Positions 4,010 through 53,090 of a stretch of DNA of 54,732 nt are shown one piece after another (the stretch's first letter is position 1; each line of letters begins with the position of its first letter). The DNA is from Asterias amurensis (taxonomy: Eukaryota), in NCBI RefSeq assembly GCF_032118995.1, contig NC_092652.1, forward strand, positions 15,816,336 to 15,871,067, read 5' to 3'. A program made the translations under genes and the position numbers. Below the pieces are notes generated by a model. The model was not told where the DNA came from. It searched no databases and saw only the letters and a list, made by a program, of their open reading frames with translations.

Positions 4010-4360
4010 GTGGGTGTGGTGGCCGAGCGGTCTAGGTCACCAGACCCAAGCTCTGGTGCTGTCGGCAGCAGAGTGTGGGTTCCAATCCCGGTCATAACAC
4101 TTGTGCCTTGAACATGTGTTGAACAAGGCACTTATAACCATAGTTGCTTTGTAAAACATTTGGAGTGTAGTGCATTCTGCTCTACCAGCCAGACTCTTAG
4201 TGTATGATACTCATGCCTATCCTTATAGACTGTGAAAGGGATAGCTTTGTTTCAGCCCCAAGAGTAGGTGGCAACGTGCCCCTTGTGACAGCTAAGTGTA
4301 GCCCTCACCTAGAAATGGTCTTCTATGGCCTTGTGATGTTAGGCAGTCTCCAAAAAAAGT
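4010..4360 (+). mobile_element. tRNA-derived SINE (family 5: same head, different body)
   Basis: Head ggtggccgagcggtctaggtcacc...cagagtgtgggttccaatcccggtcataacacttgtgcc. Body shared with 18316-18484 and 38485-38575. Confidence 0.65.
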
Positions 4361-18814: not shown

Positions 18815-19020
18815 AAATTCTGACTGGCACCCCCGAACAAAGATATTAACAAAATAGGGACACCGCCAACATAGGGCTAGATAGCTCAGTTGGTGGAGCG
18901 CTGGCTTGTTAATCCAGAGGTCGTTGGTTCGAATCCCACTCTAGTCAACTCTTTGTTCAACCCCCAAACTCATTTAAAAATTTACCCAGTCAGTTTCCCT
19001 TGTGGTTTATATTGATAACT
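18815..19020 (+). mobile_element. SINE family 3 copy; tRNA-like unit at 18876-18950 (anticodon-loop region cttgttaatcc, Lys-like)
   Basis: gggctagatagctcagttggtggagcgctggcttgttaatccagaggtcgttggttcgaatcccactctagtcaa. The 3-prime acceptor strand mismatches the 5-prime strand, so it is not a functional tRNA. Confidence 0.65.
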
Positions 19021-23729: not shown

Positions 23730-24090
23730 CTGTTGTCCTGCTCGTTTCCTGCTGTGACACTTGTGTCCTTAAGCAAGACACTTAACCATTCGTCCTTCGG
23801 ATGGGACATAAAGCCGTTGGTCCCATGTGTTGTGTAACGCATGTAAAAGAACCCAGTGCACTTACCGATATCAAAAAGAGAAGGGGTTTGCCCCGGTGTT
23901 CCTGGCTGTGGCTGCTTTATGTGCCGTAGCACCTTGTAAACCCTTAGAAGGTGCTAAATAAATGGGTCTCAGAATTCCTCACTGCAATAACATATCTTTC
24001 TGAAAGTTTGTATATACTCAGCGCCTTGAGTACCTTGTTTGGTAGATACGTGCGCTATATAAGACTTTGATATTTATATATATATATTAG
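23730..24090 (+). mobile_element. SINE family 2 (same tRNA-like head, body ..ttcggatgggacataaagc..gttggtccc..tgtaaaagaacccagtgcac..)
   Basis: Similarity to 28620-29000 and 52686-53090. Tail gcgctatataagactttgatatt. Confidence 0.65.
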
Positions 24091-27969: not shown

Positions 27970-28037
27970 GCGAGCTTCTTCGCTAGTGGTTACTGGATTG
28001 GTCTGCGGTCCAACTTGACTCACCCAGGGGAATACCA
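27970..28037 (+). CDS. exon; CTLD-G middle (ASFFASGYWIGLRSNLTHPGEY)
   Basis: Acceptor gtgatttcag, donor gtaagt at 28038. Confidence 0.8.
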
Positions 28038-28619: not shown

Positions 28620-29000
28620 AAGTGTCATGGCCAAGGGATTAAGAACACTGAATTCAAACTCTGGTGTTTCTGTTCAGCAGAGTGTGGGGTCGAGTCCCAG
28701 TCATGACACTTATGTCCTTAAGCAAGACACCATTTCTTCATCCTTCGGATGGGATGTAAAGCTGTTGGTCCTGTGTGCTGTGTAACGCTTGTAAAAGAAC
28801 CTATAGTGCGCTTATTGAAAAGAGAAGGGCTTCGCTGTGGTGTTCCTGGTTTTATTGGCAGCATATTGGGCCGCAGCACCTTGTAAATTATTACATGGTG
28901 CTTCAAAGGAATAGGTCTCTACTAAAAAACGTAGCTCAACAGTGCAAGACAAAATACTGAGCGCTTTGAGCTACGCCCCTATGTGGCGCTATATAAGAAC
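28620..29000 (+). mobile_element. SINE family 2 full copy
   Basis: Head tcatggccaagggattaagaacac...cagcagagtgtggggtcgagtcccagtcatgacactt. Tail gcgctatataagaac. Accounts for ORFs 28543..28785 and 28775..28960. Confidence 0.7.
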
Positions 29001-29255: not shown

Positions 29256-29660
29256 GTAAGTTCCCTTTTTTGTTTATTTTTTCTGGTTCACTTATTATTC
29301 ATCGTCGAATGAAATTAAGAACCCTGAGCTCAGATTATGGGGAGCTTTTCAGTCTGCGATTATTTACAACATACAGCGTAACTGCGAATGATTTTCAGAC
29401 AATCTGAAACAGTCACCGCTCAAAAAAATCAACAGTCGCAAGAGTAGAACAATTTCAACTTGTACGACAAAATCCAGATAGTTCAGAACCAATCACAGCA
29501 GGCCCACTATTTCTCAGTTGTTGTGACCGGAGCATATTTCATCCGCGCGTTGCCGACAATTTGTTGTGGGCGCAAGGAAATCGTAGGTCGACCTGAGGCC
29601 GGCTTAAGAAGCCACTATTATTTTTATTATAATTATATTATTATTTGAATTCATACCCAG

Positions 29661-29927
29661 CCGGTGAATGGAGAGACAACAACTGTGGCGACTGGGCAAA
29701 GTTCATCTGCCAGAAAACCGTCGACGACGTTCCTATGGTAACACATGCACCAACCACACCTCCGACTGGCGAGTGTCCAAACGGCTGGAAAAAGTACAAC
29801 AATCGTTGCTACACCATTGGTGGAAAGAACGAAGGATCCAAGAAGAATTGGCAAGATGCCAGGAAGGAGTGTCAAACCTTGAATGCAGCGGCTAGCCTGG
29901 CATCCATACACGATATCGCTGTGCAGA
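29661..29927 (+). CDS. exon; CTLD-G C-terminus (GEWRDNNCGDWAKFICQK), PT-rich linker, and CTLD-H start (ECPNGWKKYNNRCYTIGG...LASIHDIAVQ)
   Basis: Acceptor attcatacccag, donor caga|gtaagt at 29928. ORF 29645..30100 continues past the donor because the downstream junction copies stay in frame. Confidence 0.85.
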
Positions 29928-30240
29928 GTAAGTATTCCTTTCGAATAACAGTTTCCCTTGTCGCAAGCCTGGTGTCCATACACGATACCTCTTTGCAGAG
30001 TAAGTATTCATTTCGAAAACAGTTTCCGTTGTATACTTTCGCCAGCCTGGATATCGCCGTGCAGAGTAAGTATAGACCAATCCAGGCGCGCATTGCCTAG
30101 CACTTGCGCGCCTGGATTGGTCTATTCCTTTCTAAAATAGTTTCCCTTGTATACTATCGCAAGCCTGGCGTCCATACACGATACCACTGTGCAGAGGATA
30201 GTACATTTAGTCATTTCCAGAACACTTTCCCTTGTTTATA
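29928..30240 (+). repeat. tandem array (3 extra units, 66-75 bp) copied from the exon-end plus splice-donor junction of exon 29661-29927
   Basis: Units repeat ..agcctgg(c/t)(g/a)tccatacacgata.c..tgcagag|taagtat..cagtttcc.ttgt.. Units 1 and 2 keep cagaGTAAGT and are 72 and 66 nt, so they stay in frame. Unit 3 has the GT mutated (gatagt). Confidence 0.85.
30075..30124. repeat. 50-bp perfect palindrome inserted into unit 2 of the junction repeat
   Basis: agaccaatccaggcgcgc attgcctagcactt gcgcgcctggattggtct. Confidence 0.8.
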
Positions 30241-30468
30241 CATGTACTGTACAGTAGTATTGCAAAATAATACAAAAAATGTATCAGTGGCTATATTCTT
30301 TCTTTCGATGGGACGTAAAAGCCGTTGGTCCCATTTGTTGTGTAATGCATGAACTTCCAGGAAAAGGGGTTTCCCCCGGTTTGGCAGTGGCTGCGGAGTG
30401 CACAGCTGCTCCTTGTACCCAAATCATTTTTAAATATACCCTTACATGTACATCTTGCCCCTATGCAG

Positions 30469-30614
30469 CCTACTTGACAGCTGACCTGATTGATGTCAAC
30501 TTTGATGTGTGGATTGGTATGTCATCCCTTGGTAGCAGCGGAAACTTCCTGTGGGCAGACAACACACCGGCAGACTACTTCAACTGGGGCTTCAACCAAC
30601 CTGATTGGCCCTTT
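30469..30614 (+). CDS. exon; CTLD-H middle with QPD (TYLTADLIDVNFDVWIGMSSLGSSGNFLWADNTPADYFNWGFNQPDWPF)
   Basis: Acceptor cccctatgcag, donor gtaagt at 30615. ORF 30279..30692. Confidence 0.8.
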
Positions 30615-31795: not shown

Positions 31796-31907
31796 AAGGG
31801 AAATCGAACAGACTGTGTCTTGATGATGAATGAGGAAGAGGAACCAGGCCGCTGGAATGATGTGGACTGTATGGCCCTCAACAGCTACCTTTGTGTCATG
31901 AAACCTG
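31796..31907 (+). CDS. exon; CTLD-H C-terminus (KGNRTDCVLMMNEEEEPGRWNDVDCMALNSYLCVMKP)
   Basis: Acceptor gcataattcag, donor cctg|gtaata at 31908. This junction is the founder of the downstream minisatellite. Confidence 0.8.
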
Positions 31908-32530
31908 GTAATACTAACGTACAGTCTCATCATTAGTACTTTAACTTTGTGTCAAGAAACCTGGTAATACTAACATGCAGTCTCACCCTTGGTACTTTAA
32001 CTTTGTGTCAAGAAACCTGGTAATACTAACATGCAGTCTCAACCGTACCTTTGTGTCATGAAACCTGGTAATACCAACATGCAGTCTCATCATTAGTACT
32101 TTACATATGTGTCATGATACCTGGTAATACTGCAGTCCCATCCTTAATACTTTACCTTTGTGTCGTGAAACCTGGTAATACTAACATGCAGTCCCATCCA
32201 TAGTACTTAACCTTTGTATCATGAAACCTAATAATACTAACATGCAGCTCATCATTAGTACTTTACCTTGTGTCATGATACCTAATAATACTAACATGCA
32301 GCTCATCATTAGTACTTTACCTTGTGTCACGATACCTAGTAATACACTGTACTAACATGCAGTCTCACCCTTGGTACTTTACCTTTGTGTCATGAAACCT
32401 GGTAACTAACATGCAGTCTCATTCTAAGTACTTTAACTTTGTCTCATGATACCTGGTGATCACATGTACTAACATGCAGTCTCATCCCTGTAGTACCTTA
32501 CTGTTGTTTCATGAAACCTGGTAATACTAA
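31908..32530 (+). repeat. minisatellite, about 12 units of 49-60 bp, derived from the exon-end plus donor junction of exon 31796-31907
   Basis: Each unit: ..tttgtgtcatgaaacctg GTAATAC TAACatgCAG tctcatcattagtacttta... The last unit (32507-32530) precedes the true acceptor at 32583. Confidence 0.9.
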
Positions 32531-32583
32531 TTTGAAAGAAACAAATATTAGTTTTCTTATGATCAACCATGGTATCATTTCAG

Positions 32584-35866: not shown

Positions 35867-36087
35867 GTAAGATGCAAGAATTGCATTGTTTCACTCTGTT
35901 TGTGAAGCCAAGAATTCTCACAAAATTTATTAGCTCAATTTCTAAACTAGCCAAGTACCTCGTGAAGAGATAAAAAAGTAGAAGATTTCAGGAAAAGCCC
36001 AGATAATTTACTAAAGGGAAGATCTCTGCAATCGGATTGGGACTGATGAAAGCTCAATCAACATAGTGCTCCCAGAAGGATTTGAAC

Positions 36088-36263
36088 CAGCCGTTGATTT
36101 CACAAAACTCTTCCTAACTTAAGACTAATCTTAGGACTTAGGACGAGTCCCAGCCTTGCACTGTAGCATGCAGACCTTAAGATTAATCCTAAGTTAGGAT
36201 GAGTTACTCGCCTATCCTAACTCGAGATAAGACAAGTCCTAACTCTTTGTGAAATTGACCCCT
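36088..36263. mobile_element. MITE family D copy (inside an intronic tandem duplication)
   Basis: cagccgttgatttcacaaaac ... ctttgtgaaattgacccctg. Confidence 0.7.
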
Positions 36264-36450
36264 GATTGTGAAGCCAAGAATTCTCAGAAAATTGAACTCA
36301 ATTGCTAAACTAGCCAAGTACCTCATGAAGAGAAGAAAAAGTAGGAGATTTCAGGAAAAGCCCAGATAATTTACTAAAGGGAAGATCTCTGCAATCGGAT
36401 TTGGACTGATGAAAGCTCAATCAACATAGTGCTCCCAGAAGGATTTGAAC

Positions 36451-36596
36451 CAGCCGTCGATTTCACAAAAATTCTTCCTGACTTTAGATTAATCTTAGGA
36501 CTTAGGACGAGTCCCAACCCTGCACTGTAGCATGCAGACCTTAAGATAAATCCTAAGTTAGACGAGTCCTAAGCTCTTTGTGAAATCGACGGCAGG
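36451..36596. mobile_element. MITE family D copy with an internal deletion (second unit of the tandem duplication)
   Basis: cagccgtcgatttcacaaaa ... ctttgtgaaatcgacggcagg. Confidence 0.7.
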
Positions 36597-38876: not shown

Positions 38877-39125
38877 TCGCATCCCCTTAAGGTGATCACC
38901 TAGCTGCCGCCTCCCAGGTTGTATCGTAATTTGGGTGTGATCCCTGGCTACACGGCAGTTAACGGTTGTATGGCTTCTGACTGGCACCCCCGAACAAAGA
39001 TATTGACAACATAGGGACACCGCCAATATAGGGCTAGATAGCTCAGTTGGTAGAGCGCCGACACGTTAATCCGGATGTCGTTGGTTCGAATCCCACTCTA
39101 GTCAATTCTTTGTTCAACCCCCCCC
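38877..39125 (+). mobile_element. SINE family 3 copy; tRNA-like unit at 39034-39110
   Basis: Conserved upstream module plus gggctagatagctcagttggtagagcgccgacacgttaatccggatgtcgttggttcgaatcccactctagtcaa. Confidence 0.65.
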
Positions 39126-42924: not shown

Positions 42925-43385
42925 ATTCTGAGACCCACTGATTTAGCTATGGCGTATACAGCAGCCACAGCCAGGAACACTGGGGCAAACCCCTTCTCTT
43001 TTCGATAAGTGCACAGCCGTCGATTTCACAAAACTCTTCCTAACTTAAGACTAATCTTAGGACTTAGGACGAGTCCCAACCCTGCACTGTAGCATGCAGA
43101 CCTTAAGATTAATTCTAAGTTAAGAAGAGTTACTCGTCCTAACTCGAGATAAGACGAGTCCTAACTCTTTGTGAAATCGACGGCTGGGTTCTTTTACATA
43201 CATTACACATCACGTAGGACCAACGGCTTTATGTCCATTCCAAAGGACGGAGCAATGGTTGAGTGTCTGGCTTAAGGACACAAGTGTCACGGCTGGGGAT
43301 TCGAACCCACACTCTGCTGATCAGAAACACCCGCCACAAATTTGATGCTCCTAACCTCTCGGCCATGACACTTCCAGTAGTGACA
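42925..43385 (-). mobile_element. SINE family 2 copy, reverse orientation, carrying the nested MITE-D (43017-43186)
   Basis: Flanks align to 39830-40072 when the MITE is removed. Confidence 0.7.
43017..43186. mobile_element. MITE family D copy nested inside a reverse-oriented SINE
   Basis: Interrupts the SINE segment ...cttttcgataagtgcac | ... | ggttctttt. Compare the intact copy at 39930-39960. Confidence 0.75.
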
Positions 43386-44473: not shown

Positions 44474-44757
44474 ACATGGTGTATACTCGGTACTTTCCCG
44501 AGTTCTGTGAAAAAATTTCACATGCATATTACTCTAGCGGGATTGGATTCCACGACTCTTGCAATTCTAGAGCAGTGTCTTACCAACTAGACTACTTTGC
44601 CTAGTTACTAGAGGCAGTTGGAATCCTATATTTTGGCTGCGGGTACCGGGCAATCTCAGTAGTCTAGTTGGTAAGACACTGCTCTAGAATTGCAAGATTT
44701 GTGGGTTCGAATCCCACCCGAGAAAGTACTGAGAGTATACAGTGCTATGGGTAAAAA
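44474..44757. mobile_element. inverted dimer of SINE family 4 forming a ~120-bp-arm hairpin
   Basis: Arm 44474-44600 is the reverse complement of arm 44660-44757 (..gcaattctagagcagtgtcttaccaactagact..). A-rich tail at 44750-44771. Confidence 0.65.
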
Positions 44758-46275: not shown

Positions 46276-46675
46276 CATTGTACATGTACAAGTGTGCCGT
46301 TATAAGTTATACAAGTTATTTTGTTTGTCTTTTATACTATAGGCCTATTATGTGTGTTTCTCCATACCAAATGATATGAAAAGCAAGCTAAACATGAGAA
46401 TTTTGTTTTGCAGAATAACGGTACATTCAAGTGGATTGATTGTTGGCCATTGATGTTTACTAGTTGGGCTGATTACGAACATTGTACAAGTGTACTGTTA
46501 TAAGTTATACAAGTTATTTTGTTTGTCTTTTATACTATAGGCCTATTATGTGTGTTTCTCCATACCAAATGATATGAAAAGCAAGCTAAACATGAGAATT
46601 TTGTTTTGCAGAATACCGGTACATTTAAGTGGATTGATCGTTGGCCATTGATGTTTACAAGCTGGGCTGATTTCG
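46276..46675 (+). repeat. ~205-bp tandem duplication spanning the intron 3-prime end, the acceptor and the first 67 nt of exon 46612
   Basis: 46276-46480 and 46481-46675 are near-identical. The junction is at ttacgaac|attgtacaag. Confidence 0.85.
46414..46480 (+). pseudogene. duplicated decoy acceptor plus truncated pseudo-exon (NNGTFKWIDCWPLMFTSWADYEH...), copy of the start of exon 46612-46783
   Basis: 205-bp tandem duplication of 46276-46480 and 46481-46675. First copy has no donor and runs into a stop (..VLL*). Confidence 0.6.
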
Positions 46676-46783
46676 AACCAAGTGAAGAAGACGGAGAGGG
46701 TTGCGTAGTACAGACCAACAGTGCTGACTGGGATTCTATCAAATGTACATTGAAACGTGCATTTGTCTGTCATACAACAGAAA
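46612..46783 (+). CDS. exon; CTLD-M C-terminal part with EPS...WDS (NTGTFKWIDRWPLMFTSWADFEPSEEDGEGCVVQTNSADWDSIKCTLKRAFVCHTTE)
   Basis: Acceptor ttttgttttgcag (second copy of a duplicated acceptor), donor gtaagt at 46784. ORF 46606..46851. Confidence 0.8.
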
Positions 46784-52685: not shown

Positions 52686-53090
52686 AGTGTCGTGACCGAG
52701 CGGTTAAGAGCACCGAAATCAAACTCTGGTGCTTCTGATGAGCAAAGTGTGGGTTCGAATCCCCAGTTATGACACTTGTGTTCTTAAGCAAGACAATGAA
52801 CCATTGCTTCGGATGGGATGTAAAGCCATTGGTGCCATGTGTGGGTGCCATGTGTTGTGTAAAGCATGAAAAAGGACCCAGTGCACTTATCGAAAAGAGA
52901 AGGGGTTAGCCCCGGTGTTCCTGGCTGTGGGTGCTGTATGCGCCGTAGCATGTACATAACGGGTCTCACTATTCGTCACTGCAATAACCTATCTTTCTAA
53001 AAGTTTGTGTATATACCCAGTGCCGTGAGTACCTTGTTTGGTAGATACGTGCACTATATAAGACTTTGATATTATTATATTATTATTTTT
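52686..53090 (+). mobile_element. SINE family 2 full copy
   Basis: Head gtcgtgaccgagcggttaagagcaccg...gtgtgggttcgaatccccagttatgacac. Tail cactatataagactttgatattattat. Confidence 0.7.

Follow-up and report, generated by a model that had tools for sequence, protein, structure and literature searches.

Reiterated splice donors at an exon-intron boundary of a multi-CTLD gene: a probable lineage-specific junction minisatellite

In several human genes a minisatellite begins with a monomer that lies across an exon-intron boundary, and the splice donor is reiterated along the repeat as a result (Borensztajn et al. 2006, PMC1557585). Splicing is confined to the authentic, most upstream donor in F7 (37 bp, repeated 5-9 times), LMNB2 (100 bp) and PDGF (81 bp), the LMNB2 repeat occupying most of an intron; in IFI6 and in CBS (period 31 bp) the next two pseudo-sites are used additionally (PMC1557585). 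The pseudo-sites of F7 are functional, but a scanning-type preference, working 5' to 3', selects the first site ahead of them, and those that preserve the reading frame are not favoured (PMC1557585); the evidence for this scanning rule comes from mammalian cells. Here we describe an array with the hallmarks of such repeats: the units are arranged head to tail, the first monomer contains the boundary, and the donor is unchanged in the downstream monomers, the fourth excepted. It lies in a gene for C-type lectin-like domains (CTLDs).

The array and the boundary it spans

A single gene fills the window (the whole 54.7-kb stretch of DNA that was analysed): tblastn and an iterated HMM search locate at least 15 CTLDs in series on the plus strand, each divided into two to four exons. 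At the end of exon a of one of these domains, CTLD-H, positions 29891-30240 are resolved by the sequence itself, a repeat search, TRF and a table of units into four head-to-tail units lying across the exon-intron boundary. According to the alignment, the unit consists of the final 37 nt of exon 29661-29927 and the initial 35-41 nt of its intron; TRF reports a period of 72 with 88% matches, and the repeat search gives direct-repeat families D1-D5 with three to four copies each. Units were delimited by anchoring on GC[ACT]AGCCTGG. The features of this region are as follows, a slash marking the splice junction.

29661..29927, plus strand: exon a of CTLD-H, an open frame; acceptor cag/CC at 29660/29661
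29891..29962, plus strand: unit U0, 72 nt, with the authentic 37 exon nt and 35 intron nt; GT at 29928
29963..30040, plus strand: unit U1, 78 nt, 88% identical to U0; pseudo-donor 2, TGCAGA/GTAAGTAT, GT at 30000
30041..30158, plus strand: unit U2, 118 nt (66 + 52 inserted); pseudo-donor 3, GT at 30066
30072..30125, no strand assigned: palindrome with perfect 21-nt arms at 30072-30092 and 30105-30125 (100% complementary) and a 12-nt loop
30159..~30240, plus strand: unit U3, about 82 nt; decayed donor CAGAG/GATAGT, GT gone at 30197
30295..30394, plus strand: dispersed-repeat fragment in the intron tail, outside the array; blastn copies at 23788-23915, 43197-43245 and 52841-52870
30469..30614, plus strand: exon b of CTLD-H, with helix alpha2, WIGM and QPD; acceptor cag/CC at 30468/30469

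Exon a completes the preceding CTLD, continues through a linker and codes for the first third of CTLD-H; it terminates in phase 1 following ...SLASIHDIAVQ. The 72 nt of U0 align as the 78-nt unit with a 7-nt deletion and a 1-nt insertion; the exon-derived part of U2 has a 12-nt deletion, the net insertion in this unit being 52 nt; U3 continues straight into the remaining intron. The original prediction had the exon end and intron start copied three more times, the GT destroyed in unit 3 and a palindromic insertion in unit 2, and all of this is seen here: four units of 37 nt plus 35-41 nt, a fourth copy reading CAGAG/GATAGT, and 21-nt perfect arms around a 12-nt loop. The 72 and 66 nt quoted there are right as spacings between donors and wrong as lengths of units, which measure 72, 78, 118 and 82 nt.

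The unit motifs have no other occurrence in the 54.7-kb window, and shuffles lead one to expect 0 matches; the array is thus far beyond chance. The unit sequence likewise has no copy in L001, the related contig introduced below. An origin of the array from a dispersed repeat or from a paralogue was rejected, the unit motifs being confined to the array. A dispersed repeat family containing ...GGGACGTAAAAGCCGTTGGTCCC... is found in several introns (30295-30394, 23788-23915, 28678-28779, 43184-43316, 52748-52923) and also at 11094-11277 of L001. Introns of the gene further hold tRNA-like sequences at 18875-18947, 39032-39104, 44653-44725 and 4013-4100 (Asn-GTT twice, Ser-AGA and Leu-CAA; Rfam, ARAGORN), which are probably the heads of tRNA-derived SINEs and not tRNA genes, since they overlap repeats shared with L001 (e.g. 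L001 14469-14701).

The protein search found one relative, P0001, on the ENA metagenome contig L001, which is collinear exon by exon with positions 20538-41711 of the window at 70-84% nucleotide identity; the introns of the two sequences do not align except for dispersed repeats. Exon a matches L001 5523-5792 with 75% nucleotide identity, the protein similarity stops at the donor, and the first ~18 intron nt after 29927 resemble the start of the L001 intron (blastn reaches 29945). The orthologous L001 exon ends ...GATGTCCAGA/GTAATA and has a single donor, CAGA/GTAATA; it is followed by an unrelated, repeat-free intron of ~660 nt, after which the next exon begins cag/CGTATTTGAC, L001 6453-6598 being the ortholog of exon b. 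With the splice 29927^30469 the window and L001 proteins align gap-free over 137 residues with 76% identity. From the end of the L001 exon, the stop of coding similarity and the gap-free alignment of the CTLD we infer that 29927/29928 is the authentic boundary.

Over the 174 codons of CTLD-H compared with L001, pN is 0.135 and pS 0.75 (saturated), and identity by codon position is 86/86/51%; the pN/pS indicates a domain under purifying selection and two lineages old. Canonical CTLD-H aligns gap-free to 13 paralogous CTLDs of the window, scores 68.6 bits against Pfam Lectin_C (PF00059; cut-off 22.6), and has visible QPD and WND motifs in its sequence. For a 571-aa multi-CTLD query the nearest annotated proteins (snail, annelid, lizard) are 31-32% identical, and the source lineage appears to have no annotated close relative in the database searched. 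The spliced product of the multi-CTLD gene was not found in that protein database, and no match was returned by an exact look-up of ORF 29645-30100, by JGI metagenome scans with protein patterns and a degenerate exon-b DNA pattern, or by an IMG/VR scan for relatives of the gene; the protein search, the look-up and the JGI and IMG/VR scans likewise gave no second haplotype or individual.

Age and origin of the array

The array is without counterpart in L001, the only relative found (one distant species), and no tandem array occurs in the 15.8 kb of that contig. The exon-derived parts of the units are 84-92% identical to each other. As the units are far closer than the saturated synonymous sites, and as L001 lacks any tandem array, we place the origin of the array in the lineage of the window. 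Differences between exon parts number 2 of 25 for E0 and E2, 3 of 37 for E1 and E3, and 6 of 37 for E0 and E1, and the intron parts group alike, with TATTCC in I0 and I2 and TCATTTC in I1 and I3. This ABAB grouping speaks for a first duplication of ~78 nt, divergence, and then duplication of the pair. An ABAB higher-order pattern is the usual minisatellite signature of unequal exchange.

The best reading, which includes the probable silence of the extra donors (below) and to which we give a probability of roughly 0.7, is a young minisatellite restricted to this lineage, the exon-intron boundary of CTLD-H lying inside its first monomer. It would have begun with the tandem duplication of a ~78-nt segment (37 exon and 41 intron nt); the two copies would have diverged before the pair was duplicated in its turn to give ABAB; small indels (-7/+1 in I0, -12 in E2), the entry of the palindrome into unit 2 and the decay of the fourth donor may then have followed. 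Of the two origins proposed at the outset, a neutral slippage product gains support from the absence of the array in L001, the ABAB structure, two sister duplications with in-frame stops and, as far as so few sites go, the 3:2:2 spread of variable sites over codon positions described below.

The palindrome interrupts the sequence precisely at position +7 of donor 3 and carries a TAG at 30098-30100; no second copy of it exists in the window or in L001. The predicted RNA fold of U2 has an energy of -51.7 kcal/mol (z = -7.1), and in this fold an extension of the palindrome stem pairs donor 3 positions -1, +1 and +3 to +5, so that the accessibility of donor 3 is probably lowered by pairing at the palindrome foot. 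As regards the features expected of a MITE, the arms are perfect over 21 nt and there is a possible 2-nt AT duplication, in a single copy for window and L001 together; a tiny foldback element or a template switch is a possible origin. Derivation from a copied coding stretch for the CTLD 'WIGL' was discarded, as the 12-nt match of one arm (CCTGGATTGGTCT) to 27993-28004 has E ~0.12 and is put down to chance.

Two more local duplications in this gene span a splice junction.

31889..32530, plus strand: second donor array; TRF period 56, 11.5 copies, score 683
46285..46678, plus strand: acceptor duplication, 2 x 198 nt; TRF period 198, 95% matches; identity 96%

The 56-nt unit of the second donor array is made of the final 19 nt of exon c (31796-31907, CTLD-H) and 37 intron nt, and its 12 copies account for 623 of the 676 nt (92%) of intron 31908-32583. 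GT is kept in 10 of the 12 copies, seven having the identical CCTG/GTAATA, and L001 has a single donor at exon c. The read-through frame meets a stop after nine codons, and therefore only the first donor of this array yields the conserved protein; as the most upstream of the 10 GT donors is the only one to preserve the frame, the spliceosome of the organism must cope with reiterated donors. Each 56-nt unit (CCTG/GTAATACTAAC...) also has a TACTAAC and then a CAG, resembling a branch point and an acceptor. In the acceptor duplication the cag/ ends lie at 46413 and 46611, and use of the upstream copy would lead to a stop and a truncated frame.

The remaining local duplications in the window are intronic throughout. 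One tandem duplication of 364 nt (35896-36590, 93-96% identity) starts 28 nt 3' of the donor at 35868 and is purely intronic. Altogether a junction is spanned by 3 of the ~7 local duplications, where unit length multiplied by junction density predicts 1.7 (P = 0.22), and preferential duplication at splice junctions was dropped as an explanation, the enrichment being unsupported. The simplest reading is a high local rate of tandem duplication in this lineage, the junction-spanning products being tolerated.

Use of the extra donors

A 14-nt core, TGCAGA/GTAAGTAT (-6 to +8), is identical at GT 29928, 30000 and 30066, the spacings being 72 nt (29928 to 30000) and 66 nt (30000 to 30066). Since their 9-mers are identical, any position-weight or MaxEnt model scores the three donors equally. 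Each offers eight contiguous base pairs to the 5' end of U1 (+1 to +8), and by this pairing and the identity from -6 to +8 the pseudo-sites are intrinsically as strong as the authentic site. The frame of exon a (phase 1 at 29927), read onward, gives SKYSFRITVSLVASLVSIHDTSLQ (72 nt) and then SKYSFRKQFPLYTFASLDIAVQ (66 nt) without a stop, and closes at the TAG 30098-30100 within the palindrome. The claims that units 1 and 2 retain a consensus donor, and that the extensions are stop-free and preserve the frame within ORF 29645..30100, are thus confirmed by three identical donors and 72 + 66 nt of open sequence.

How far this openness exceeds chance can be estimated. Stop triplets make up 5.5% of the non-coding trinucleotides of the window; a run of ~26 codons derived from the intron would lack a stop by chance in 23% of cases, and both spacings would be multiples of three in 1 case of 9, so that the joint chance of spacings both in frame and stop-free is ~0.025 for the exon a array of CTLD-H. 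For one or more of the three junction arrays to have this property the chance is ~0.07, and the figure for donor 2 alone is ~0.17. The indication that the open frame is more than a coincidence is suggestive, not compelling. The in-frame spacings arose via a -7/+1 pair of compensating indels and the loss of 12 nt, and the variable sites in the exon-derived copies, few in number, are distributed 3:2:2 over codon positions 3, 1 and 2, which, given so few sites, gives no sign of coding constraint. Most likely, the 138-nt open frame is a coincidence.

The effect of an extension on the domain was modelled with AlphaFold2, using the window paralogues as alignment and replacing the split-codon Thr by Ala in the modelled sequences. 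For canonical CTLD-H the model has pLDDT 91.5 and pTM 0.86, and Foldseek places it at TM 0.87 to solved CTLDs (5f2q, probability 1.00). In this model helix alpha2 comprises residues 50-63, and the exon junction Q53/T54 falls in its first turn, ~13 residues on the N-terminal side of WIGM and well away from the long loop; the original prediction had put the insert in the long-loop region, which both the model and the paralogue alignment contradict. The +24 form keeps the core (pLDDT 81.7, pTM 0.78; residues 51-72 with pLDDT <50), with Foldseek TM 0.85-0.89 to its targets, and four of its five models are at pLDDT 70-74 versus 83-91 for the canonical form. The 24-residue insert is predicted to be a floppy, disordered loop that the fold may tolerate, and the +24 isoform need not be misfolded, since AlphaFold keeps the CTLD core. 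The Pfam Lectin_C score falls from 68.6 bits in the canonical form to 63.0 in the +24 and 55.5 in the +46 form, in which only profile positions 36-106 are aligned and the N-terminal third is unaligned. None of the 13 paralogous CTLDs of the window has an indel at the insertion site.

On our analysis, the donors at 30000 and 30066 are probably pseudo-sites that are largely silent, splicing using 29928. All extra copies sit 3' of the authentic donor, and the most upstream donor would be chosen; donor 3 would in addition be hidden in the foot of a predicted hairpin of great stability. Provided that the most upstream donor is indeed chosen, the mRNA would be unchanged by the duplication, because the extra copies are all downstream. 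Counting against silence are the three equally strong donors, the precedent of IFI6 and CBS, the ~2.5% chance of the open frame, the CTLD core retained in the +24 model, and the mammalian basis of the scanning rule, the organism here being an invertebrate-like metazoan.

Several of these points speak for the donor at 30000, and perhaps that at 30066, being a real alternative 5' splice site in a fraction of transcripts, which would add a loop of 24 or 46 residues between the LASIHD strand and helix alpha2. Three units share one and the same 14-nt donor core, the chance of spacings of 72 and 66 nt without a stop is ~0.025, IFI6 and CBS use their first two pseudo-sites (PMC1557585), and the +24 model retains the CTLD core (pTM 0.78, TM 0.85-0.89) and shows the insert as a loop without order; the frame being preserved, such transcripts would escape nonsense-mediated decay, and the variants could be by-products or exploited isoforms. 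Although this is the main rival reading, we consider such use rather unlikely, since the array is missing from the orthologous L001, 0 of 13 paralogues have an indel at the site, the Pfam scores drop and the +46 form loses the alignment of its N-terminal third, four of the five +24 models reach only pLDDT 70-74 against 83-91 for the canonical domain, donor 3 lies in the base of a predicted hairpin of about -50 kcal/mol, the known long-period arrays (81 and 100 bp) use the authentic donor only, and the two sister arrays contain stops and so cannot generate isoforms. Of the built-in isoform generator suggested originally, the arithmetic stands (identical donors, in frame, stop-free), whereas L001 without the array, the paralogues without indels, the Pfam drop and the disordered loop tell against it.

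A stronger version, in which donor 2 (perhaps 3) is used meaningfully and the copy number also varies between individuals, so as to give individual-specific in-frame length variants of the CRD, appears very improbable; if true, it would mean that an IFI6-like junction minisatellite was recruited for lectin diversification in an invertebrate. Highly doubtful, too, is a role of the extra donors as intronic U1-binding decoys or enhancers that help to define the exon upstream of them or shield the pre-mRNA, and that owe their retention to this and not to coding. Units 1-2 have an intact donor core alongside 8-16% divergence in the flanks (chance ~0.06, a rough count), and seven identical donors persist in the 31889-32530 array, but the exon a array is not conserved in L001, GT is lost in unit 3 and in 2 of the 12 copies of the second array, and junction-spanning duplications are not enriched (3 versus 1.7 expected, P = 0.22). 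Least probable of all is an assembly artefact or the insertion of a transposable element with donor-like sequence: the palindrome of unit 2 has the look of a tiny inverted-repeat element, but substitutions and indels set the units apart in an ABAB structure unlike that of stutter copies, unit 0 directly adjoins a conserved coding exon, and the unit sequence occurs nowhere else in the window or L001.

Relation to described junction minisatellites

If the extra donors are silent, the array is a further example of a tolerated class of mutation, a tandem duplication across a donor that is invisible to the mRNA. It also shows a route of intron growth by self-copying of a junction, one intron here being 92% copies. 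The gene provides natural tests of splice-site competition outside mammals, with three identical strong donors (66-72 nt apart), 10 GT donors (56 nt apart) and a duplicated acceptor, and its arrays could show whether the rule of F7 that the most upstream donor wins holds more widely. For annotation, such arrays matter as gene predictors may settle on a donor further downstream and so yield a CTLD lengthened spuriously by 24 or 46 residues.

As to the host gene, its likeness is to the mannose-receptor family (DEC-205/LY75, PLA2R, MRC1, Endo180), which has tandem CTLDs and to which the solved structures matching CTLD-H best belong (for DEC-205, E = 1.6e-56 as a sum over its domains). It differs in its at least 15 CTLDs in the window versus 8-10, and with an identity of ~30% orthology is not claimed.

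Among the junction repeats, intron 7 of F7 resembles the exon a array in its boundary-spanning first monomer and in identical pseudo-sites downstream of the authentic donor; there, some pseudo-sites would keep the frame yet go unused. In contrast to F7, the period here is 72-78 nt, with three extra units that are 8-16% diverged, and the donor is much stronger (GTAAGTAT versus gugggu in F7). Intron 2 of IFI6 and intron 13 of CBS share the reiterated donors, and the use of their pseudo-sites is what the original prediction proposed for CTLD-H. The IFI6 repeat has a period of 12 bp, and its products are in-frame length variants. The IFI6 and CBS repeats are of short period and present in 15-26 copies, whereas the donors of exon a are spaced by 66-72 nt. 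This spacing resembles rather the long-period junction repeats of LMNB2 and PDGF, and the 31889-32530 array, with 92% of its intron taken up, has its direct counterpart in LMNB2. Those repeats belong to other genes and another phylum, and here two donor arrays and one acceptor duplication are found in one gene. The exon a array is thus a new, invertebrate-like example of the junction minisatellite class already described.
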